From Octopus vulgaris (Eukaryota): a DNA stretch of 64,000 nt. Position numbers and translations under genes: made by a program. The notes below the pieces were generated by a model. The model did not search any database. It was not told the origin of the DNA and worked only from the letters and a program-made list of their open reading frames with translations. The stretch spans positions 24,180,001 to 24,244,000 of the forward strand of contig OX597819.1 in NCBI GenBank assembly GCA_951406725.2, in the 5' to 3' direction. Positions 7,043 to 58,205 of the stretch are shown here, in pieces. Position 1 is the stretch's first letter, and each line of letters starts with the position of its first letter.

Positions 7043-8501
<1,459 letters not shown>

Positions 8502-8548: not shown

Positions 8549-9709
8549 GAGCAACAAAAAGAAGGAACACATGAGAAGAACCGAGCAACTTCAACATTAC
8601 AAATAAAGAACCAAGTCCTCCCCCAATGGAGAACACTACAGCGAAACAGAAAATTCGCTTTTTGGAAAATGATACAAAATGAGAATAAAGCAGAGATTTA
8701 CCAAAAATGGCTAGACTCAACACCCCTAGTCATACCCCGTAAATTACAAATCAAACCCATCTCGGAAGAACCAGAAGAACAAAGAAAACTTAGAGAAAAA
8801 ATGTCATTAGAAAAAATGAAGATGGAAATAGAACTACTTAAGCTGAGAGCTAAAACGAATGAAGAAAAAGTAAAAACCATAGACGAGGAAATCAACGAAG
8901 TCATTAAACTAATAGACGACAACAATACTGAAACATTACCAGCACTATGGAATGAAGAATGTGAAAAAGAGGAACTTAAGTCCCTCCAACGATGGGAAAA
9001 GAGCGCCATCTGGTTTCTAGATTATGAAACCAACTTCAAAAATGAACACATATCCAACAACCCCTTCATAAAATTAAGCAAATCAAAACCAAATACCAAC
9101 AGAACGGAACAACCACCAAAAAATCCTACCACACTCTACACCAGAAAAGTACACCTAAAACACACCCCACACTACCTACACCAACCCCAAAACACCTACA
9201 GAGGCCCACCACACCAGTTCGAAAATAGACATACCAACAGAGCAGAACAACCACCAAGAAATCCAAACACACTCTACACCAGAAAAATGCATTTAAAACG
9301 CACCCCACACTACCTACACCAACCCCAAAACACTTATAGGGTCCCACCACACCATTCCACGAACCTAAGAGCCACAACATACAATACTATAAAATACAAC
9401 CCACATAACCAAACCAAAACGCTACTACCAAACATCCACCCCAGGAACCAACCATACAACCATAACAAACAACAAATGCACTACGGAGGAAACAACTACC
9501 AACACAATATACCTGAGGAACTAAGACGGAACACTAGGTTCAACAACAGACTCCAGAACAGAGCACCACAAACTCACTCTGACAATTATAACAACATGAG
9601 ACAGATAAATAATAGCTTTGAACATAACTACACCAACCATTTTTTAGACCCCACACACAGGAACAGGGACACACGATGGCAAAGGACAAACAAAAGAAAC
9701 CTCAGGTAA
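8549..9709 (+). CDS. PLE-associated ORF1 (coiled-coil N-terminal half, low-complexity N/H/Q/P C-terminal half)
   Basis: 346-aa ORF from 8669. The frame stays open back to the microsatellite junction at 8549. Heptad-like stretch EQRKLREKMSLEKMKMEIELLKLRAKTNEEKVKTIDEEINEVI. Confidence 0.7.
   Translation, partial: EQQKEGTHEKNRATSTLQIKNQVLPQWRTLQRNRKFAFWKMIQNENKAEIYQKWLDSTPLVIPRKLQIKPISEEPEEQRKLREKMSLEKMKMEIELLKLRAKTNEEKVKTIDEEINEVIKLIDDNNTETLPALWNEECEKEELKSLQRWEKSAIWFLDYETNFKNEHISNNPFIKLSKSKPNTNRTEQPPKNPTTLYTRKVHLKHTPHYLHQPQNTYRGPPHQFENRHTNRAEQPPRNPNTLYTRKMHLKRTPHYLHQPQNTYRVPPHHSTNLRATTYNTIKYNPHNQTKTLLPNIHPRNQPYNHNKQQMHYGGNNYQHNIPEELRRNTRFNNRLQNRAPQTHSDNYNNMRQINNSFEHNYTNHFLDPTHRNRDTRWQRTNKRNLR
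9640..9646 (+). promoter_or_regulatory. candidate -1 ribosomal frameshift slippery heptamer T TTT TTA
   Basis: In ORF1 frame (caT TTT TTA). A -1 shift reads without a stop into the ATG at 9676. Confidence 0.55.
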
Positions 9710-11971
9710 TTAAGATAATCAATCTCTCAAACAAAGAACTTACACCTAACGAAATAAGCATACTCTCCAAAGGACTTAAATTTACACCAACCCCACAACG
9801 TTCTAATTACTATGAAATGAAAAATGATATTTCGGAATTTTGCAGAAAACTAAGACTCACCGAGGCATTTCAAGACAAACAAATAGACAAACTCAATAGC
9901 TAGAAACAAGAGCAATTACACCCCCACCAAAGGTAGGAATAAAGCCTTAGACCGCTATTGTGACTACATAACTAATTTCCCGTTTCAATTCATCAAGAAA
10001 CAAAAACACAGCCCTAACTTCAACAAAAGAGAATGGAACGACCTCATCAAACTAAGAGAAGACAAAACAATAACAATTAAGGAGGCAGATAAGGGCAACG
10101 CGATAGTAATAATGAATACAAACGATTATAAAAATTTAGTGCTATCCCTATTAAGAGATGAAACGTATTATGAAAGGGCCCAACAGTATAACCAGCAAAA
10201 AATAATGCATAACCTTAGGACATTAATCAACACATACCAAGAAGGACTCACGAACAAGGAGTATGAATACATCACTAACTTCAAATGCAAATCGAGTTTG
10301 TTCTATGGTATACCTAAGGTACACAAAAGCCAAACCATTAGAGAAACGTGCAAAACATCCACCGACACACTCATCAAAATCCCTTCACCAAATGATCTTA
10401 AACTAAGACCGATAATAGCAGGGCCAGCATGTGAAACTCACTGCCTCAGCAATTTCTTAGACACACTTCTTAAACCTTTCCTAAAACACATCAAAAGCTA
10501 CGTAAGAGACGATATAGATATGCTCAACCACCTCCCTAAAACAGTCAATGAGAAAACCCTTCTAGTATCATTCGACGTAGTTAATCTTTATTCTAACATC
10601 CCTCACAACCTAGGAATAGAAGCGATCACCTTCTGGCTGAATAACTACCCCTTTGAACTCCCAACTCGCATAAACAAAGACCTTATAATAGAAGGACTTA
10701 GATTCATTTTAGAGAACAATTATTTTATTTTTGACAATGATTTCTACAGGCAAAGATCGGGAACAGCGATGGGCACGCGTACTGCACCATCTTTTGCCAA
10801 CCTAGTGATGGGATACCTCGAGAAAATACTATACCGGATGACACTCGAGAAATATGGAAACACCTTCGCCACCTATATCCATAACAACTGGAAAAGATAC
10901 CTCGATGACTGTTTCATCATCTGGGACAAAGGTATAGAGAAACTTGAGGAATTTAAAATACTATTAAATGGAATAAATGACAATATACAATTCACGATGG
11001 ACCACAACGAAAAAGAATTACCATTTTTAGACATCCTCATTAAGAAAACCGGCAACAAAATAGAGACAGATATCTACTATAAACCGACAGACTCTAAACA
11101 GTACCTACCCTTTGATTCATGCCACCCACGACACACTAGAATGAATGTCCCTTTTTGTTTAGCTAGAAGGATTTGCACCATAATATCAGACACAAACACC
11201 CGACACACACGTCTCCAGGAACTTAGAACCACACTCACAAATAGAAACTATCCACAGCCCCTAATAGACAGTGCAATCCAACGGGTACTTAAATTAAGTA
11301 TAGAAGACCTGAGACAAACAAAACCAAAAAAGAAAGAACAATTAAAAACCCTTCCCTACATCTCTACACACAACCCACTCAACAATGAGGCCTTCAACAC
11401 CATACTACAAAGCACAGCCCTACTAAAGGGAGACCCAAAGATGAACCGGATCCTCGAAACACACACCATCATTAAAAGTAAACGGCAACCAAAATCCTTG
11501 AAAAGGATTTTAACCCAAGCTACACTGCACTCAACATCAACCACAAAACCAGCAGTTAGAAAATGTGGAAGGCCCAACTGCGGAATCTGTGTCATCTTGA
11601 AAGAAGGATCAGAATTTATACTGGAACAAGGCCACCAGTTCACCATTAGAACAAACTTCACCTGCGCATTAGAAAACTTAATTTACCTCATAACATGCGC
11701 AGGCTGCAATAGGCAGTATATAGGCCATACAAAAAATAGCTTACGTAACAGGATGGCGGTACATAAATCACAAATTAGAAACCCTGATTACCGCAAAATA
11801 CCGGTCAGCGGACACATAGATAGATGTGCTGGAAATGTAAATCCGAAATTTACAACTAACCCGCTCTATAAATTCAGTGACAACGCAACCTTCACACAAC
11901 GCCAAAATAAAGAACTATATTTCATAAAAAAATTTAGACCAAGTTTAAACACCCTGGGCCAGGAATACTAA
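9676..11971 (+). pseudogene. PLE reverse transcriptase plus GIY-YIG endonuclease, single +1 frameshift near 9887-9900
   Basis: IINLS..LT..E..ILSKGLKFTPTP, FYGIPKVHK, LRPII, SFDVVNLYSNI, GTAMG, RYLDD, LPFLD, YYKPT, CGRPNCGIC linker, LIYLITC..CNRQYIG. The second frame is open from 9887 (TNSIARNKSNYTPTKGRN). Confidence 0.95.
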
Positions 11972-12140
11972 AACAAAAGATAAGTCCTCCGAAAAGGAGA
12001 AGCAAAATTCCACCACGGCCGCTACTTCAAACAGACACTCACTCTGACGGAAATATGCCTTAGTAAAAAAGGAAAAAAATTCTTTCGTGCAAATCTGACC
12101 CTGGTACATACGATACAGCTAAGGGTCAGACCCGATTCTG

Positions 12141-12604
12141 ATTGGTCAACAAGTTGATGACGTCTAGCTCTGCTAGAATGGACAGGATACAAACAGGGGA
12201 CAGTCATTAGTCAGAATATTGATGACGTCCTTTTCTGCTTGACTAGTCACCTAACAAGTACAGACAGGGGGCAGATCTAATGTAGCTATAAGTCGTGATT
12301 GGGCAGAATCTGGATGACATCCCGTTCTGCTTGACTAACGAAGCGACTGGTCAAAACAGGAAACAAACAAGAGGCAGTTATAATGCAGCGATTGGTCAAA
12401 ATAATGATGACGTCCCGTTCTACCTGACTAACGAAGCGACTGGTCAAAACAGGAAACAAACAAGAGGCAGTTATAATGCAGCGATTGGTCAAAATAATGA
12501 TGACGTCCCGTTCCACTTGACTAAAGCCACCTAACGAAACGATTGGTCAAAACGTTGATGACGTCACGCTACGCTGGATTGACCACCTAACAGGCATTAT
12601 AAAA
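12141..12604 (+). promoter_or_regulatory. putative PLE pseudo-LTR Pol II promoter: six ATTGG-N12-TGACGTC modules and TATAAAA
   Basis: ATTGG (one ATTAG) at 12141, 12206, 12298, 12391, 12484 and 12542, each 12 nt before a CRE-like TGAC(G/A)TC. TATAAAA at 12598. Confidence 0.65.
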
Positions 12605-12942
12605 CCGAGCACTTCACAAAAACTCACTAGAACCACCCAGCGAACTTCCACCATGGGTCATCACAATTGCTTAAGGTAAAAATGAATTCCTCGCTCTTTC
12701 GGAAACATCAATCTTCTGTATTGACCGCTTTCCACCACTTTGATCTGTTTTTTGTATTGAATACGTATCGCCACCGTGGGCCACTGCATCGAACACTTTG
12801 AACATATACTTCAAACTATATATCAACTATACATGAACTATATATCAACTATACATGAACTCTAAGATGTCTGACTCCGTTGTGTATTATAAATGAATTT
12901 CTTGTGTTTGACGGCATGAGCTGTCTTTTTTTATATATAACT

Positions 12943-32334: not shown

Positions 32335-32472
<138 letters not shown>

Positions 32473-32686
32473 CAATAATAATTCTCTAAACGAGGTATAT
32501 ACAGTAACTGCTCCATAACATAAGGGACGTTAGCCATCCGAGTATGGCTAGGGACAGGGCAGGGCGGTGGGGGTGTTACTGATGCATTTAGCCCCAGGCG
32601 ATCATCAACGTCACCAGGAGGGCTGACGCCACCACGGCGTCCTCTAGCCTGCAAAGGGAGATCATTCCCCGAAGAAGCGGATGCCA

Positions 32687-32731
32687 CATACGGACCCAGG
32701 TTTCAAGGTGTTTGCCTCTCGTCAACGTATG
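32687..32731 (-). ncRNA. type I hammerhead ribozyme (unit 1)
   Basis: CATACG-TTGACGA-GAGG caaaca CCTT-GAA-ACC tg GGT-C-CGTATG. 6-bp stem I, GUC cleavage triplet. Confidence 0.8.
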
Positions 32732-33046
32732 GTAGGCACCGCCCCTCGACGAACGACTCTCTGTGCAGGCTATCTATATAAAGATTTTCGCAGTAAATAC
32801 ATTTACTGATGTAGAAAATCTGTTCGACAGCAATAATAATTTTCTCTAAACGAGGTATATACAGTAACTGCTCCATAACATAAGGGACGTTAGCCATCCG
32901 AGTATGGCTAGGGACAGGGCAGGGCGGTGGGGGTGTTACTGATGCATTTAGCCCCAGGCGATCATCAACGTCACCAGGAGGGCTGACGCCATCACGGCGT
33001 CCTCTAGCCTGCAAAGGGAGATCATTCCCCGAAGAAGCGGATGCCA

Positions 33047-33091
33047 CATACGGACCCAGGTTTCAAGGTGTTTGCCTCTCGTCAACGTATG
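33047..33091 (-). ncRNA. type I hammerhead ribozyme (unit 2)
   Basis: Identical to 32687-32731, exactly 360 nt away. Confidence 0.8.
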
Positions 33092-33221
33092 GTAGGCACC
33101 GCCCCTCGACGAACGACTCTCTGTGCAGGCTATCTATATAAAGATTTTCACAGTAAATACATTTACTGATGTAGAAAATCTGTTCGACAGCAATAATAAT
33201 TCTCTAAACGAGGTATATACA

Positions 33222-33297
<76 letters not shown>

Positions 33298-34964: not shown

Positions 34965-35176
34965 GGGAGAGAGAGAGAGTTTGAAAACAGAGATCTCATG
35001 GATACAAATTTATTTATTTATTAATTAGCGTAGTCACCTGGAATTGTTTCATATATCAGACAAAATTCAAACTACCAAACATATAATATGAATGTAATAA
35101 TTTTGCACTTTAAACTAGCTTGGATCGAAAATCATCAGAGTTCACAAAGGACAATACAAGAATTACGTTATATATG

Positions 35177-37121
35177 TATATCTCCAACACCTCTGTCTCC
35201 TTCCTCGACATTTCGGTTAGCATTCTTCACTCCACTCTTACCACCTCCATTCACTACAAACACACAGACTCACACTCATACCTCAACTTCTCTTCCTCCC
35301 ACCCAGAACACACCAAGCTTTCCATCCCCTATTCCCAATTCCTCCGTCTACGTAGGCTCTGTAGTGACGACCATGACTTTGAGACTCAGTCTCAACGTAT
35401 GGCTCACCACTTCACCCTACGTGGATACCCCCTCACCACTATCCACACCGCCCTTGCCAGAGCACGGTCCGTGGACCGTGTATCTGCTCTCTCTCCCCGA
35501 ACCCGCCCTGTAGTCTCCCGCCTCCCTTTTCCCCTCACTTACCACCCCACGACCCTACGTCTCCAACGCACCATTCTTCGAGCTTTCCGTCATCTCCAGT
35601 CCGACCCGTCCACTTCACACCTCTTCCCTAACCGACCCCTCCCCTCTTTCAAACGAGCCCACAACCTTCGGGACCTTTTGGTCCATAGCTCCTTCCCTGA
35701 CCCTACCTCCCAACCCGGCTCGTTCCCCTGCTCCCGCCCACGTTGCCGCACTTGCCCTTACATCTCCAACACCACCCGCCTCACTAGCACCCACCATCGA
35801 CCCTATCCCATCATCCACTCCTTCACCTGGACCTCCAGCAATATTATCTATTGCATCTCTTGCTCTCTCTGCAATTCCTTGTACATCGGACAAACGGGAC
35901 GCCGCTTGGCTGACCGGTTCGCGGAACACCTTCGTGACATCCACCTTGCGAACGACACACCGGTCTCACGCCATTTCCGCTCAACCGGTCACTCCTTGCA
36001 ACACCTATCTGTGTTCGGTTTGTCCTTACACAGAGGCCATCCGGATTCCCGTTTGCGCCGTGAACAGCAATTAATCTTCTCTCTTCGCTCTTATACGCCA
36101 TTTGGTCTCAACTCTCCCCCCTCCTCATCTAACCTCACCCCCTCCTCACCTATCCTTTCTCCCCCCGACCCCTACTTCTTCAGTCCTTCATCCTTTCACC
36201 CCTACTCCCCTTCCCTTCTTCCCTCTTTCTCCCTCCCTCTTCCCCTTCCCTCTGCTCCCTCACTCCCTCTCTCCCCTTCTCTCTCCCCCTCTCCCTCTTT
36301 CCTCCTTCATCCCCCTCATCCCCTTCCTTCTCCCCCATCCTCTCCTCTCCCCCTTCTCCTCCCCCTCTTCTTCCCCTCCCCTTCTCTCCCCTCTTCTCTC
36401 CCTCCCCCTCTTCTCCCCCTCCCCCTCTTCTCCTCACTACACCACATGACTTTACACATCACATCACATATGATGTGCCATACTAATACACACACCAACT
36501 AATACCTACTAATACGTACTAATACATACTAGTACATACTAATACTTACACCAACCCTATACATACACACGTCCAGACCCCGCATACGCACTTATACTCT
36601 CTCACACACACACACACACACCTATACATACCAATACGTACTAATACATACTAATACATACAAATACATACACCAACCCCATACATACGCACGTCCAGAC
36701 CAATCTTACGCACTAATACTCTCTCATACACACACACACACACACACACACCCTTATACATACTAATACATACACCAACCCCATACATACACACATCCAG
36801 ACCCCTCCCACGCACTTTTAGCTGGTCCCTCAACCCTTTTATCAACCCTATTATCTCCCCTTATTTCGCTCTCGCGTCTCATGTTTGATCTTTGACCTCT
36901 GGCCGAAATCAGATCGCCATGTTGATTCGTTAGCTACTGCACGCATTTTTTTCTCTCCTTCTTTCTGTGTTTTTCTCTCTCTGTGTATCTTTCTGTTGAA
37001 GAGCGTAGGCTCGAAACGTTAAAGACTTGTTTTATTTATATTTCCTGAGCGCCATACTAATACAATTGTTCGTTTGTTTTCCACCTGCCTTCGTCTTTTG
37101 TTTATTTTCATAAAGCTTCCC

Positions 37122-44667: not shown

Positions 44668-45397
44668 AATGTAGGATAAAAATTTTTTTCGAAAAAAGAA
44701 AATTTATCAATGGCCAGCATATTAAAAAAATCCTTTAAAGGTTAAATTTATATATTTCATAAATAAAGGCAAACGAAAAAATTTTTAAAGCCAAATATGC
44801 CGAAAAATTGGACATATTGTCCATAAACCATATAACTTTTTCACAATATGCACGCTACTCGAAAAAAGGCCGACAGAAATTTCTAAAAAATTCCATTATT
44901 ACCATATCGGACCGATTTCAGGGTTAGATCATAAGAGCCCTCCCTTCGTCAGTGATAAATGTGGCAAAAGAAATAAATGAAATACTTACTCATACCCATG
45001 GAAGAAGCAAACACTAAGTCATGAGCACAATTAAGTACCCCAAATACATCCAAAATAGAAATATTCCAGCCCATTCAAGACACGTGCGATTTGAACTGAG
45101 GCCCTCACAAAGTGAGAGAATCCGGAAGTGAACGCTTAAATTTATATCTAATGTAGGATAAAATTTTTTTCGAAAAAAAAAACTTTTATCAATGGTCAGC
45201 ATATTAAAAAATTCCTTGAAAGGTTAAATTTATATAATTCATAAATAAGGGCAAACGAAAAAATTTCTAATGCCAAATATGCCGAAAAATTGGACATATT
45301 GTCCATTAACCATATAATTTTTTCACAATATGCACGCTACTCGAAAAAAGGCCGACAGAAATTTCTAAAAAATTCCATTATTACCATATCGGACCGA
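44666..45397 (-). mobile_element. partial tandem (about 1.5 copies) of a 482-nt HHR-bearing unit
   Basis: 44666-44915 is repeated at 45148-45397. (TA)n on the left. Confidence 0.82.
44899..44958 (-). ncRNA. type I hammerhead ribozyme, canonical core
   Basis: TTATCA-CTGACGA-AGGG...CCCT-GAA-ATCGG t CCGAT-A-TGGTAA. Confidence 0.8.
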
Positions 45398-47249: not shown

Positions 47250-47947
47250 GAAGAGATGAACTCAATATCACGTGTGACCACTGTTAGCGTTGATTACCGC
47301 CAGACATCTTCTACACATTGAATGCATTAAGCGATTGATGGAGTCCATGAGGATAGTAACCCACACTCTCAAAATTTGCAGTGAGTTGTACCTCAGTTGT
47401 CGGTCTAGGACAGATGTCATTTAGACTTCTTTGGATTTCGTCCCACGGGTGCTCTGTGGGGTTCAGGTCCGGACTTGGGGCAGGCCATAACAGTGTCTGG
47501 ATTTTGTGCTGTTGGAGGAAGTCTGTTATCAGCCTAACAGTATGGTCACGGGCGTTGTCATGTTGGAAGACGTGATTCCAATGATGAGCAAAGAATGACA
47601 CAGTGTGAGGCCTTAACACTTGGCTGATGTATCGAGCAGCGGTTACTCCATTGCAACAGAAACTGGTGCAACTGAAGGAGAACATCAATTGAGAAATTAG
47701 AGGTCCGAAATCCTTGAGGGTGTTATGGTGCAAGTTTTGGAAAAAGCACGGGCGTGCGAAGCCGAAAATGGCTATCATTTAAGCGATGTCCTATTTCATA
47801 TGTGATGTAGTGGCATTGCAAAATTTGAATTCTGCATATTAATCTCCATTATGTCCTTTATAGTGTGTCAAAATTTCATGCATTTATTTATAAAATTAAG
47901 GTAGTTATTAAAACTTGAATCCAGTCAATGACTTTTGGGACACCCTG
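47250..47947 (-). mobile_element. Tc1-family (DD34E) transposon remnant
   Basis: VFQHDNARDHT and WPAPSPDLNPTEHPW in ORF 47311-47778. TIR-like CAGGGTGTCCCAAAAGT on the minus strand at 47947. Confidence 0.82.
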
Positions 47948-47960
47948 TGTGTGTGTGTGC

Positions 47961-48009
<49 letters not shown>

Positions 48010-48081
48010 CCTTAAATCCTTAAAAATGTTTTAGCCCGAAGGCCGCGGCCATGCTGGGGCACCACCGCTGAATGAGCTACA

Positions 48082-51000
48082 CTAGTTTGTGAATCCACCT
48101 CTGATACGTGGCACTTGATCAACAAGGGAGTTCGATGCTGCTGCCCGCATCCGTGTCTCCTGTCGTGAGGTAGGTTCATCTGGGACTCCCAACAAGAAGA
48201 GATCCAGTTTAGTTTTAAAGAAACCCACATCCACACCATGTAAGTCTCTCAGGCATTTAGGGAGGATGTTAAAGAGCTGTGGTCCTCTGAAACCCAAGCT
48301 GTTGCAGTATCTGGACCTGTATTTTGATGGTGATGTTGGAATCCTTGGCACCACGCAGCGGCGCCCCGTTCTGCGGTTGGAGTAACTTTGAATGCCAAAG
48401 TTTGGGACAAGACCCTCCAGGATCTTCCAGATGTATATCACTGCATATCTCTCCCGCCTCCGCTCCAGGGAGAAGAGGTTTAATACCTTCAGTCTTTCCC
48501 AGTAGCTGACATTTTGCATTGAGACGATTTTCTTTGTGTAGCTTCTCTGAGTTGCTTCGAGTTCTGCTGTTTGTTTTATATTGTGTGGTGACCAAAGTTG
48601 GGAGCAGTAGTCCAAGCGGCTGAGGACAAATGTTTTCCATAGGACCATCAGTGTCTCCTTCTCTCTTGTTCTGAAAGTTCGGAGAATCCATCCAGCTAGC
48701 CGTCTGCATTTTATCACCAGATTAGCAATATGCATTTGGAAAGATGCATCATTGCTCATGTCAATGCCCAGGTCACGCACTGATTTTGACTCAGGGATTG
48801 CAATTCTTCCTGGGCCAGTGTATCCAGTCTTCACGTCATTTACCTTTGTGTGCCAGTAGCGCAGGGCCTGGAACTTACCTGCATTAAACTGCATGTTGTT
48901 GTCCTCAGCCCACCTGTATATTGTGTCCAGCTCATGTTGCAGATGCGCAATATTTTCAGGGTTTTGTATTGCGTGGGAGACTTTTGTGTCATCTGCATAG
49001 CTAGCAAGGGTAGTCATCGTAGCAACTGAAGGCATGTCTGAAAGGGCCACTATGAACATCAGTGGCCCCAAGACAGTGCCCTGTGGGACACCGCTTGTTA
49101 TTTGCGTTTCCCTGGAGGTGGCTCCATTGCTCACAACTGCCTGTTTTCTGTCTTTTAGGAAGTTGTGCAGCCACTCTCCAAGTTTCCCGCCTATGCCGAG
49201 ACCACGCAGTTTGTGACAGATCATACCATGGTCGACTTTATCAAAGGCTTTTGCAAAGTCAAGATATATTACATCCACATTTGAGCCATTTAGTAGCTGT
49301 TTCAACACCCAGTCATAGTGTTGCAGGAGCTGTGTTAGGCAGCCTCTACCTGGTCGAAATCCATGCTGGGTGTCAGACAGTAAGTCATTTTCTTCAAGGA
49401 ACATGATTAGTTTCTTACGGACTATTCGTTCCATGACTTTGCTGATGTGTGAGGTCAGAGAGATAGGCCTATAATTTTTAGCATCTGCTCTGTTACCTCC
49501 CTTATGGATAGGGCATATTACCCCCTCTTTCAGTTTGACTGGGAGCTTACCACTTGCAAGAAAGCTCTGAAAAAGAAGCTGTAGCGGTTTTGCAAGGGCT
49601 CGTTTGCACGATTTGAGAAGGATCGCTGGGAATCCATCAGGTCCAGCAGCTGAGTTTGTGTCAATCTCATCAATGGCTAGTGTGATATCATCATCTTCGA
49701 TGTTGATGTACTCAATTTTTGTCTCTTTGGCCGCTGGTAAAGTGGCAAAGAATTATTCTGGGTTGTTTACTTGCCTGTGTCCTAGAGGTGTAGTGAACAC
49801 ACTTTGGAACTGTTCGTTCAGTATTTCACTTATCCTCGTGGGATTTCCTGTGAGAGAGCCATCTTTTTGGAAGAGAGGTCCTATTCTCTGGTGCACTGTG
49901 GCTGTCTCTTTGGCAAACTTAAAGAAAGCTTTAGGGTTTGATTTTATATTTTCTATTACCCAAGCTTCTTTATCTGCTCTCTCCTTTTCATGGGACTGAT
50001 GTAGACTTTTCTCAGTTTCCATTAGCATTCTTTCGAGCCGAGACTTCTCACCACTTTTGGTGTGCTTGCTCAGGCGGTTTGCAATCCTTGTCCGTCGTCT
50101 CATAAGAATCCTCCTTTCTCTAGGGATCCTGTTTTTGTTCTTGTGTGTGCTGGCTCTGCACATTGGGACATATTTGTCACATATGGCTTGTATTATGGAC
50201 ATGAAGTGTTTGTGTTTCATGTTTATGTCCGGTGTGGAGAGACATTCAGGCCAATCCTGTTTGAGGATCTCTTTCTCAATCGACTTCCAGTTGGCTTTAT
50301 GAAAGTTTAAGTTGGAGAGATGGTGGGTGCTTCGTATAGGCTGTGTGTCTGCGGGGGCTTTTGTTCCATACATAGACAGCTCTATTATGTTGTGATCCGA
50401 GATCATTGTCGGCATCACATTAACATTATGGATAATATCCATATTGTTTGTGAAGCAGAGATCCAGTATATTATCTGCCCTTGTTGGTTGCAGAACTATT
50501 TGCTCCATGAAAGAGGCATTTGTGAGATGGAGCAGGGACTCCACCTGTGCCTGCTGATGGTGTGTCATCCCTGGGAGCATCTGCCCCCCAGGCCATTCCA
50601 CATTGGGGAGGTTAAAGTCACCCATGAAGAATACACTGTTGTGCTGTTCAAGGTTGGTGAGGACTTCTCCTATTTTTGTTAGGCAGTCTTCAAACATGCC
50701 TGAGTGTTTTGGGGCATCTGGTGGGCGATATGTAGTGCATATGACGATATTCAGTTGTCTTATGTGTACAATTTGAGTTTCACATACTGAGTTTGAATAT
50801 GACAGCAGGACCTGGGGCGTGAGGTCATCTCGGATGTACATTGCAACTCCACCATGGCTCCTCCCTTTTCTATCTGTGCGTATGACTGCATATTGCGGCA
50901 TGTGTATTTCTGCATCACCTATATCGGGTTCAAGATGCGTTTCTGTGAGTGCCATGCATATAGCTTGATTGCATGTCACAAGGTCTCTCAGGAATGAAAT

Positions 51001-51180
51001 TTTCTTTTTACAGTTTCCGCGCAGCAGCCCTCCTACATTCAGTAGAAATATTTTTGTGGTGTTGGTGTTGGTGTCTGTGGTGGCCATCCTGCATCTGTTG
51101 GAGGTGGCCTTATGTGGTGGTAGTTCCAGCTTTGTGCTTGTAGCCAGGTCAGTTGCTGAACAATTTTTTGTGCCATGCAC
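48082..51180 (-). pseudogene. LINE ORF2 (AP endonuclease + reverse transcriptase), one in-frame stop at 49753-49755
   Basis: LTETHL, GGVAMY, YRPP, MGDFNLP, ILDL, SDHN, then NYRPISLTS, DFAKAFDKVDH, GVPQGTVLGP, YADDTK, LDYCSQLWSP, SLERRR. Both ORF pieces share a frame and the segment between them is open. Confidence 0.93.
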
Positions 51181-51934
51181 AAAAAGACTGCTGTTCAGCT
51201 GCCGCCCTTCTCACATCTGGGTGAAGCTGGCCACCTGTTGGGTTTCCGCGCACCACATCTGCATACCGTCTTTCAGTAGTGGTCAGTGCGCTTTTTTCCC
51301 TTCTTTTAACTTTTTGTTTTTGTTTTTGTTCTCCCTGAGGGAGGGACCTCTGTCTCGCGTCCGTGCGGTTTTGGTAGGGCCTCCGATGTGCAAAGCGACA
51401 GTTTGCACCTTCAACGCCGTACCAGCAGTCCCCCCTCAGGTAGAATTTGCAGGTGTTTCTTTCCCTGCCCTTACAGTTTTTGCTGGGGTCCCTCTGCTTT
51501 CTCTGGACAGGGCTTCCTTTAGCCTTGATTCTGTCACCCTTTACCTCCTGCTTCCCATCAATTCCAGGGTGCCTTTCCTTTCTTGCGGCCATCGCACCTC
51601 TTTGGTCTTCAGTTGTGGTGTTGGAAGCTGGACATGTGTCATCGTTTCCCTGTGTTCCAGGCTTCTCCATTTGGCTCTGGATGCTTTCCTCATCCTTTTG
51701 GCCCTCCCTGCTGCCGTCACCTCCCAGGATGATGTCCAGGGTGTCCACATGTTGCCTGATTAGAGCGTACGAACGGATAACTTCTCTCTTCTTTCGCTCT
51801 ATCTGGGCGGTGGTTCTCGAAAAATTGTTGCTTTTCAGCGCCGCAGCAATAATGTCGTTCGGCGAGTCGTCCTCAGCGATCCTCCAAGCGCGGACGAACA
51901 ATTGCACCTCTCTCGCAGACCAGTTTCTTGCCAT
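51149..51934 (-). CDS. LINE ORF1: N-terminal Myb/SANT-like helix domain and CCCH zinc finger
   Basis: MARNWSAREVQLFVRAW...IAAAL...RTTAQIERK and CKFYLRGDCWYGVEGANCRFAH. Confidence 0.7.
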   Translation of the reverse strand: MARNWSAREVQLFVRAWRIAEDDSPNDIIAAALKSNNFSRTTAQIERKKREVIRSYALIRQHVDTLDIILGGDGSREGQKDEESIQSQMEKPGTQGNDDTCPASNTTTEDQRGAMAARKERHPGIDGKQEVKGDRIKAKGSPVQRKQRDPSKNCKGRERNTCKFYLRGDCWYGVEGANCRFAHRRPYQNRTDARQRSLPQGEQKQKQKVKRREKSALTTTERRYADVVRGNPTGGQLHPDVRRAAAEQQSFCAWHKKLFSN

Positions 51935-52768
51935 TTTCTTCTAGTGAAATATAGGAACAGAGAGAGAGATAGAGAAGGAGAGATATGGAGAGGGAGAAGA
52001 GAAAGGAGAAAAGGAGAAAAGCCAGGGGGGGGATAGAGAGAGACGAGGGGATTGTCCTGAGAGAAGAGAGAAAGAGAGAAAATAAGAGGGAAAAAGAGAA
52101 AGGTGAAAGAATGGCAGGTCAGCAGGGGGAGAGTGAGCGGGATAGAGGTGTAGTAGAAAGGGACAGGGTGGAAAAGTGAGACAAGAGGGTGGACCCTAGG
52201 GGGAGCAGGGAGAAGAAAGGCGGAGAGATAAAATGGAGAGGAAGAGAGAGATAAAATGGAGAGGGAGAGGGCAGGATAGAGGTACCAGGGAGTGAAGTAA
52301 AGGGACAGAGAGGGTGGTGTGGAGGAAGGAGACAGAGAGAGGAAAAAAGAGACAGGGGGTGGTGAGCCTTAGAGGGAACAGGGAGAGGAAAGGTAGGAAG
52401 AAAAAAGGGGGAAGAGGAAGAGAGGGGGCGCAACAGAGTGTAGTAAAGGGACAGGGAGGGTGGTGTAGAGAAAGAAATAAGGGGACAGAAGGGGAAGAGG
52501 AAAAGGGGTTTGACCTGTGAAGGAGCGGAGAGGAAAGAGGCAGAGAGAGGGAGGGGGAGTAACAGAGAGAGAGAGAGAAAGAGGGCGGTATATAGATACA
52601 AGAGAGAATGAGTGAAGTTGAGGAACTGAGAGAGGGGTGAGGTGAGAGAAAGTTGATCTGAGAGAGATGCAGAAAGAGAAACGATTGCAGAGGGAGAGAG
52701 AGGGAGGAGGGGAGAGTGAGAGCGGAAATAGAGGGTCTGGTGGATGGGGAGACAGATAAGGTATAAAC

Positions 52769-56566: not shown

Positions 56567-56700
56567 TGTAAAAAAGAAGTTTGAAAACGCCACTATATTA
56601 GATAAATTTTAATTTTCTTATGAATTTTACATGTTTCGGTTCTTGAAAAAACGAACCTTATCAAAAATATTATAAAAAGTGCAATAGAAAAGTTCATAGT
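56562..56700 (-). mobile_element. PLE 3'-end fragment related to 12940-13050, with a U3-A8 hammerhead (56624-56668)
   Basis: attt-TTGATAA-GGTTC...GAACC-GAA-ACATGT-A-aaat. Ends aacttcttttttacaaaaa(TA)n, like the PLE at 13030-13050. Confidence 0.72.
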
Positions 56701-57644: not shown

Positions 57645-57726
57645 TTCCCCTGATGAAGGAGTAATTATCGTGATGCACCTTCGTGCATTAAATACGATGT
57701 TGAACCCCTGAAATGGCCATAGGGAA
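57645..57726 (+). ncRNA. type I hammerhead ribozyme, canonical core, long stem II
   Basis: TTCCC-CTGATGA-AGG...CCT-GAA-ATGGCCAT-A-GGGAA. Confidence 0.8.
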
Positions 57727-57864: not shown

Positions 57865-58205
57865 ATTTTATGTAAGGGGGATCAGCCATCTGAATGTGGC
57901 TAGGGACAGGGCGGGGTGGTGTGGGTGTTACTGATGCTTTTAGCCCCAGGCGATCATCAACGTCACCAGAAGGACTGACACTATATAAGTGTCCTTGTTT
58001 GCCTGTAAAGGGAGGTCATCCTCCCTCGAAGATACGGATACTACATACGGACCGGTTTCGAGGTCATTGCCTCTTATCAACGTATGGTAAGTACCGCTCT
58101 TCGATGAAGGATTCCCTCTACAAGCAACATATATAAGGTTTTTCACAGTAACTACTGTCACTGATGTAGAAAAACTGTCTGAAAACAATAATAAATCTCT
58201 GAACG
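57865..58205 (-). mobile_element. diverged monomer of the 360-nt retrozyme-like unit, HHR at 58044-58086
   Basis: Colinear with 32520-32850. CATACG-TTGATAA-GAGG caatga CCTC-GAA-ACCGGT-C-CGTATG. Confidence 0.82.

Follow-up and report, generated by a model that had tools for sequence, protein, structure and literature searches.

Copy C, a retrozyme-like unit in the 64-kb window (the whole stretch of DNA that was analysed), is best read as a solo insertion of less than unit length, derived from one of the subfamilies of an animal non-LTR retrozyme family whose source RNAs were selected for their fold. We put the probability of this reading, which is built on sequence comparison, at about three in four. 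The unit is non-coding, carries a hammerhead motif on its minus strand, occurs in both tandem and solo states, belongs to a multi-copy family and has a fold whose several helices bear compensatory changes. Judged from the aligned copies, the RNA fold is kept mainly in the long helices around the ribozyme and not in the ribozyme alone.

Microsatellites abound in the window, whose DNA looks animal-like and contains retrotransposon ORFs; copy C is embedded in AT-rich flanks (9–20% GC). By BLAST it matches two stretches of a sister dimer (32521-32852 and 32881-33210) at 79–80% with E values of about 1e-75, and in its alignment to copy B of that dimer 266 of 328 columns (81%) are identical and 62 differ, with 11 gaps. 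The first-pass annotation had described a diverged, colinear monomer some 25 kb away at 57865-58205; this is borne out, with homology over 57873-58205 and a distance of 24.6 kb to the dimer. Loose ends of public contigs at 57873 and 58205 (run X13) and at 58202 (run X14) mark the copy C borders. The unit is non-coding in that the single 80-codon ORF of copy C has no counterpart in the dimer; its GC content is below 50% (45.6% in copy C and 49.7%), and no internal region lies between the dimer repeats. No tRNA gene was found in the 64-kb window, and hence there is no sign of a tRNA-SINE head.

At 333 of about 361 nt, copy C falls roughly 28 nt short of a unit of about 360 nt, and the missing 28-nt linker can be inferred from the loose contig ends. 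It has no terminal tail, and its 60-nt flanks share no word longer than nine low-complexity bases, which gives no clear target duplication. Because 28 nt are missing and there is only a single cut site, we regard copy C as a probable dead insertion. The single site, a stem III of only one pair and the lack of a neighbouring partner also make it probably inert, a record of selection on its source.

Table 1. Positions of the retrozyme-like units and their RNA elements in the window (double: pair changed on both sides with pairing kept).
Feature	Position	Strand	Basis or remark
Copy C, solo retrozyme-like unit	57873..58205	-	333 nt, 46% GC; BLAST homology to dimer
Most conserved block of the unit	57921..57967	-	2 of 47 sites differ from copy B
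Six-pair (downstream) hairpin	57977..57993	-	doubles 57990/57980, 57988/57982
Extended stem I, long interrupted helix closing the hammerhead	58000..58126	-	compensatory changes relative to copy B
Type I hammerhead motif of copy C	58044..58086	-	motif scan and consensus
Copy C hammerhead stem I	58086-58081/58049-58044	-	CAUACG/CGUAUG
Copy C hammerhead core U3..A9	58080-58074	-	U3-A8
Copy C hammerhead stem II	58073-58070/58063-58060	-	loop 2 is a hexaloop
Copy C hammerhead G12-A14	58059-58057	-	
Copy C palindromic stem III; C17	58056-58051; 58050	-	
Copy C predicted cut	between 58050 and 58049	-	standard hammerhead consensus
Upstream two-part hairpin	58138..58175	-	doubles 58174/58139, 58157/58152
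Sister dimer, two head-to-tail units and a 36-nt extension	32471..33224	-	between TA repeats
Unit A hammerhead, identical to that of unit B	32687..32731	-	predicted cut between 32693 and 32692
Unit B hammerhead, U3·G8 core	33047..33091	-	predicted cut between 33053 and 33052

The two dimer units, of 358 and 360 nt, differ by 2 substitutions and one 2-nt indel, and the predicted cuts would release 360 nt. The locus is set between TA repeats and ends in an exact 36-nt terminal extension which, since it belongs to the unit, is not a target duplication. Partial tandems, a tail of 30–40 nt and a (TA)n target are the insertion marks described for Penelope-like elements (PLEs); tail and TA target occur together at one of the two loci, the dimer, copy C having no tail. 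From these marks the dimer looks Penelope-mobilised; the close identity between its units, together with the intact tail, points to a recent insertion, although a recent look does not prove that the U3·G8 core cleaves.

Within the window, an ORF with reverse transcriptase (RT) and GIY-YIG domains lies at 9887-11971, and a similar RT/GIY-YIG fragment, for which Pfam gave no match, at 35114. Both carry a CxxxxCxxC linker like that reported from Neptune and Nematis elements, and the unit has no homology to the surroundings of either ORF. The first belongs to a Neptune-like PLE at 8549-12800 (+), in which a frame of 386 codons precedes the RT plus GIY-YIG frame of 694 codons and the 3' region contains 93-bp repeats; the hammerhead scan was negative there. 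Judging by eye from translations, we take 35114-36100 (+) to be a second PLE-like fragment, 47311-51940 (-), which has frames for an endonuclease and an RT, to be LINE-like, and 7276-8180 (-) to be mariner-like transposase remnants.

The minus-strand motif agrees with the cleavage-site and stem I/II consensus of a type I hammerhead, with all strict core positions present in the three copies and U at position 3 in each. Scanning the window for the motif returned 6 hits, 4 of them at score 12, as against 4 hits in total, 1 at score 12 or more, in 10 shuffles. Because Rfam at its gathering thresholds gave no match in the 64-kb window, the hammerhead call rests on the consensus motif; in E-value mode Rfam had no hit on the dimer, and near copy C offered 5.8S rRNA (E = 0.35) and Xist (E = 1.4), both rejected as chance.

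The stem and core differences listed by the first-pass annotation are all present: relative to the dimer, copy C keeps stem I unchanged (CAUACG/CGUAUG, 6/6 pairs), turns a G·U of stem II into G-C (GAGG/CCUU to GAGG/CCUC), has ACCGGU in place of ACCUGGGU in stem III, and has UUGAUAA in place of UUGACGA in the core (N7 C>U, G8>A). Positions 3 and 8 can thereby pair as U-A in copy C, and in the dimer only as a U·G wobble. Where the annotation erred was in presenting the palindromic stem III as new to copy C, since that of the dimer is likewise self-complementary through tandem G·U pairs; both forms therefore suit a dimeric hammerhead, with predicted self-duplex energies of -11.2 kcal/mol (dimer) and -9.7 kcal/mol (copy C). 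In the monomer, the active hammerhead fold lies 5–6 kcal/mol above the predicted minimum.

Taken alone, the hammerhead does not stand out significantly from the rest of the unit. Between copies C and B, 5 of 43 hammerhead sites differ against a unit average of 19% (P = 0.15), none of the 10 strict core sites does (P = 0.12), and no pair inside the hammerhead is altered on both sides; its changes amount to one wobble-to-Watson-Crick exchange, one 2-nt indel and one core change. By itself it is thus no more conserved than chance and gives no evidence of selection. The earlier inference that the ribozyme fold was selected in the sources of at least two subfamilies survives as selection on an RNA fold in the source elements and as the existence of more than one subfamily; the hammerhead changes cited for it are insufficient.

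The signal sits in the flanks. Pairs with a probability above 0.5 were predicted from one copy alone and scored on the other, the null being 20,000 permutations of the substitutions among same-base sites; the test is one comparison of two independent sequence types, with sites treated as independent. When the 90 pairs predicted from copy B were scored on copy C, 66 were unchanged, 8 were kept by a one-sided change, 8 were kept by a double change, 5 were broken and 3 were gapped. Double changes thus numbered 8 against 1.84 expected, a value reached in 1 of 20,000 permutations, and broken pairs 5 against 20.0, a value that no permutation fell to. The reciprocal test on 93 pairs from copy C gave 8 doubles against 1.6 and 8 broken pairs against 17.7. 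A count of 70/70 pairs kept with 8 doubles in hand-picked helices is circular, as these helices were chosen from the consensus fold, and was not counted as evidence.

All eight double pairs lie outside the core, four in extended stem I, two in the upstream hairpin and two in the downstream hairpin, so that the first-pass statement that the flanks drift is wrong. Those of extended stem I (58126/58000, 58120/58006, 58092/58040 and 58090/58042) are accompanied by several G·U exchanges, and this helix has a folding z of -7.4 against mononucleotide shuffles. Two of the eight are weaker, 58126/58000 standing beside indels and 58157/58152 closing a loop, and the six stronger ones still lie about three standard deviations above the null mean.

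The most conserved part of the unit, more so than the hammerhead, is the 47-nt block listed in Table 1 (best-window permutation P = 0.017), a candidate promoter or RT-recognition module. The block draws far higher contig depth, which may only reflect the likeness cut, and exact-pattern scans for it found no loci in metagenome contigs and none in viral contigs. It contains a TGACGT word and adjoins a GGGCGG word (57921-57967, 58130-58137), and a TATATAA word is kept in copy C, the dimer and one loose-end variant; these may be CRE, GC and TATA boxes, the last fitting the plus strand better. A 10-nt motif present twice per unit showed no window-wide enrichment (10 found, 8.1 expected), and a bacterial promoter scan was set aside as irrelevant for an animal repeat.

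Sampled words of copy C were found in 20 of 24 listed sequencing runs, from 5 organisms. Four runs, from organisms A, B, D and A, were aligned to copy C at 80% likeness, with 873, 795, 269 and 93 contigs matched, respectively; all four consist of contigs, and X13 is an RNA run by guess only. The family is therewith diverse and multi-copy in three organisms (A, B and D). Variants were taken as the best 40 of 57 rows, at 36 sites, with unphased shares by depth, and a depth share is not a copy number. As dimer-like copies sit at the 80% cut, the contig sample is biased to the copy C type.

Within the hammerhead, the variant sites so listed comprise positions N3, N7 and N8, loop 2, and a single A-U/G·U exchange in stem I. 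Depth shares in the four runs are 0.06, 0.15, 0.23 and 0.24 for G8 in place of A8 and 0.06, 0.07, 0.15 and 0.22 for C3 in place of U3, and N7 varies freely (0.24–0.69). Among the listed rows the stem I pair goes from A-U to G·U at a share of 0.38–0.91, barring an unlisted change of its partner, and stem I therefore varies within the family. Strict-core, stem II and stem III positions, 22 in all, are absent from the variant sites of the best 40 of 57 rows (P = 0.013 within 58001-58128, a range picked afterwards, and P = 0.076 over the whole unit).

Copies like copy C mostly have the U3-A8 core, with C3 and G8 in the minority. The first-pass annotation had implied a change from U3-G8 to U3-A8; A8 being the majority among contigs, in a sample biased to the copy C type, means that this direction is not established and makes the U3·G8 dimer the unusual form. 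Record 6 of X13 probably carries both C3 and G8. Three of the contig inferences rest on depth arithmetic with unphased shares. At pair 58097/58034, G·U in copy C and G-C in copy B, the variant shares also fit A-U and C-G forms.

Copy C represents a real lineage, given two contig records: record 14 (organism D) agrees with it in 87 of 88 letters spanning the core, and record 28, a contig of organism B with depth 523, agrees in 88 of 90 letters downstream of the core. Record 28 also has, by depth arithmetic, G·U at pair 57982/57988, which is G-C in copy B and A-U in copy C. Loose ends at both copy C borders read into one 28-nt linker that resembles the dimer's, so that C-type units must be joined head to tail somewhere, in DNA arrays or in circles. 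The contigs that run on into unlike sequence make up only 0–7% of those aligned.

On the analogy of published retrozymes, from which the steps of transcription, cleavage, circle formation and copying are inferred, tandem source copies would be transcribed, and their hammerheads, with a stem III too short to be stable alone, would pair as dimers through this self-complementary stem. The dimeric hammerheads would cut after C17 and release a 360-nt monomer, which a host ligase would circularise. A Penelope-like, probably Neptune-type, RT/GIY-YIG protein would then copy the circle into TA-rich DNA, starting in the AT-rich linker. More than two rounds of copying would yield a dimer with a 36-nt tail, and less than one round, or later loss, would yield copy C. 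Selection would have acted on the transposing source RNAs and on their whole fold.

A different view of the same loci, which we think improbable, takes the unit for a pseudo-LTR that became detached from an autonomous Penelope-like element, and both loci for 5'-truncated insertions of that element instead of an independent retrozyme. Partial tandems, tails of 30–40 nt and TA targets are, after all, features of such elements, retrozymes and pseudo-LTRs are reported to be homologous in Xenopus (bioRxiv 10.64898/2026.07.22.740005), and the earliest mention of eukaryotic U3-A8 cores in the literature consulted concerns Schistosoma PLE hammerheads, with about 1,300 hits (PMC4209133). The minimal PLE hammerheads of Cervera and de la Pena (2014, PMC4209133) share with this family the type I topology, a palindromic stem III, a proposed dimeric action, the U3-A8 variant and families rich in compensatory changes. 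As characterised there, however, the minimal type has a long stem II of 7–8 bp, a short stem I of 4–5 bp and an extra base between positions 9 and 10.1, whereas the helices here are of canonical size, with 6 bp in stem I and 4 bp in stem II, and A9 is followed by no extra base. Units are joined directly to one another in the dimer and in the loose contig ends, the small fraction of contigs that continue into unlike sequence also counts against a pseudo-LTR, and the RT plus GIY-YIG ORF that flanks PLE pseudo-LTRs was not found linked to the unit in the 64-kb window.

We hold it to be highly improbable that the paired changes arose at the DNA level, through repair or template switching in which one arm of an inverted repeat corrected the other, and not through selection on RNA, with the hammerhead left as an inherited relic. 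Such a process would be strand-symmetric for Watson-Crick doubles, and the plus strand does score (6 doubles against 2.1, P = 0.011; reciprocally 6 against 1.1, P = 0.0004), as it must where pairs are Watson-Crick; the unremarkable conservation of the hammerhead region by itself and the deviation of both cores from C3-G8 would suit it as well. Yet eight one-sided changes pair through G·U on the minus strand and leave A·C mismatches on the plus strand, pairs scored from copy B are broken in 5 of 90 cases on the minus strand versus 12 of 101 on the plus strand, and the folding z is -5.5 versus -2.7. One pair, moreover, is in its G·U state in a high-depth contig, and bulges, which arm repair would be expected to erase, are kept. 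Scarcely credible, finally, is that copy C is an old decayed copy of the dimer's subfamily whose differences arose after insertion, a rival that the contig and pair-test data largely refute: 28 of the 62 copy B to copy C substitutions are G>A or C>T, and at 3 of the 36 listed sites (57922, 57987 and 58092) the copy C letter is rare, 95–100% of the depth in all four runs differing from it and agreeing with copy B, but neutral decay would have broken about 20 pairs rather than 5, contigs match copy C almost letter for letter in organisms D and B, and A8 is the majority state.

Returning to a retrozyme family selected for its RNA fold, we grouped it with the metazoan non-LTR retrozymes on features of its sequence, which point to the same kind of element. 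Like those of Cervera and de la Pena (2020, PMC7229834), it has a non-coding tandem unit within 150–450 bp (350–390 bp in mussels), a GC content just under 50%, a single type I hammerhead in each unit and a predicted self-paired circle. One hammerhead per short head-to-tail unit is what the dimer and the C-like loose-end junction have, copy C being solo. Of the two axolotl types of stem III in that account, 1 bp with a palindromic tetraloop resembles copy C and 2 bp with a tetraloop resembles the dimer, and both were far better as dimers. The likeness concerns these features, and the core is U3-A8 or U3·G8 here but C3-G8 in the retrozymes as described there.

Monomers, dimers and multimers coexist in the retrozymes of Li, Clavereau and Pollet (2026, bioRxiv 10.64898/2026.07.22.740005), as they do here, and solo monomers are regarded there as offspring unable to transpose. 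Those retrozymes, too, co-occur with Neptune/Poseidon PLEs. That work deals mainly with vertebrates and argues from co-occurrence and pseudo-LTR homology, whereas the link to PLEs here is an insertion signature (a 36-nt tail and a TA target) at one locus. With the satellite hammerhead of Dolichopoda pDo500 (Martinsen et al. 2010, PMC2837043) the family shares a conserved core, a variable N7, compensation in stems and an extended stem I, and the case for selection made there is the one that the first-pass annotation made here. According to the reported analysis of 198 pDo500 sequences, in contrast, conservation in the hammerhead exceeds that of the remaining repeat and C3/G8 are nearly fixed, whereas in the present family the signal is strongest outside the core, and both position 3 and position 8 vary.

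Published activity data for the core variants point both ways. When a type III hammerhead was scanned pairwise, all single and double variants around the 3:8 pair were weak except the G:C swap; equivalents of U3·G8 and U3-A8 were weakly active in that scan, whose scaffold differs from that of this family. Perreault et al. describe natural U3-A8 covariation and cite earlier activity in vitro. In Xenopus, 1 of 9 predicted retrozyme dimers cleaved in vitro and 8 did not (bioRxiv 10.64898/2026.07.22.740005). A speculative reading, which we consider unlikely, is that the core of the family moves between C3-G8 and U3-A8 by way of a transposition-competent U3·G8 wobble, with the circle of about 360 nt and the 47-nt block constrained above the core. 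Its basis is the wobble core in a young-looking dimer with a Penelope-type tail, together with the segregation of all these states in contigs. If it were true, weak or dimer-gated cleavage would suffice, the circle shape and the 57921-57967 block would be selected by the partner RT or the transcription machinery, and the family would be a ready test system for PLE-driven mobilisation of retrozymes in an invertebrate.

Natural U3-A8 cores, selection on satellite hammerheads with compensation, a PLE origin of retrozymes and animal non-LTR retrozymes are already published. With the element kind, the U3-A8 core and the selection argument in print, this is a new family and not a new concept. The literature searched yielded neither a cephalopod retrozyme nor activity of a U3·G8 core in type I motifs of animals, nor a description of this family of about 360 nt, although the supplement of PMC7229834 may list such elements. 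Compensatory changes across the unit indicate that the overall fold of a retrozyme RNA is selected, beyond its ribozyme; since U-A, U·G and C-G cores occur naturally in a single scaffold, the level of cleavage that a retrozyme requires can be tested directly; and a 36-nt tail within TA repeats lends small support to the unproven mobilisation of animal retrozymes by PLEs.

Several other hammerhead-like motifs lie in the window. A second, unrelated type I motif at 57645-57726 (+), about 150 nt to the left of copy C and convergent with it, has a C3-G8 core, a long structured stem II and an 8-nt palindromic stem III; in Schistosoma, pairs of hammerheads on opposite strands 100–700 bp apart have been described (PMC4209133). 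Both this motif and the copy C hammerhead are surrounded by an inverted repeat (57350-57566/58336-58556; 221 columns, 93% identity) that ends at TA-rich sequence; copy C may have inserted into a MITE or into a PLE present as an inverted insertion. A two-copy repeat family at 56664 (-) and 12947 (+) contains a hammerhead-like motif with a U3-A8 core, a 5-bp stem II, a palindromic stem III and a weak AT-rich stem I, and U3-A8 cores may be common in the source genome. Finally, a degenerate motif at 44952 (-) has C3-G8 and a long stem II, and a 262-bp direct repeat (44655-44915/45137-45397) that starts approximately at its stem III/cleavage site is, by analogy, a putative PLE-like partial tandem.
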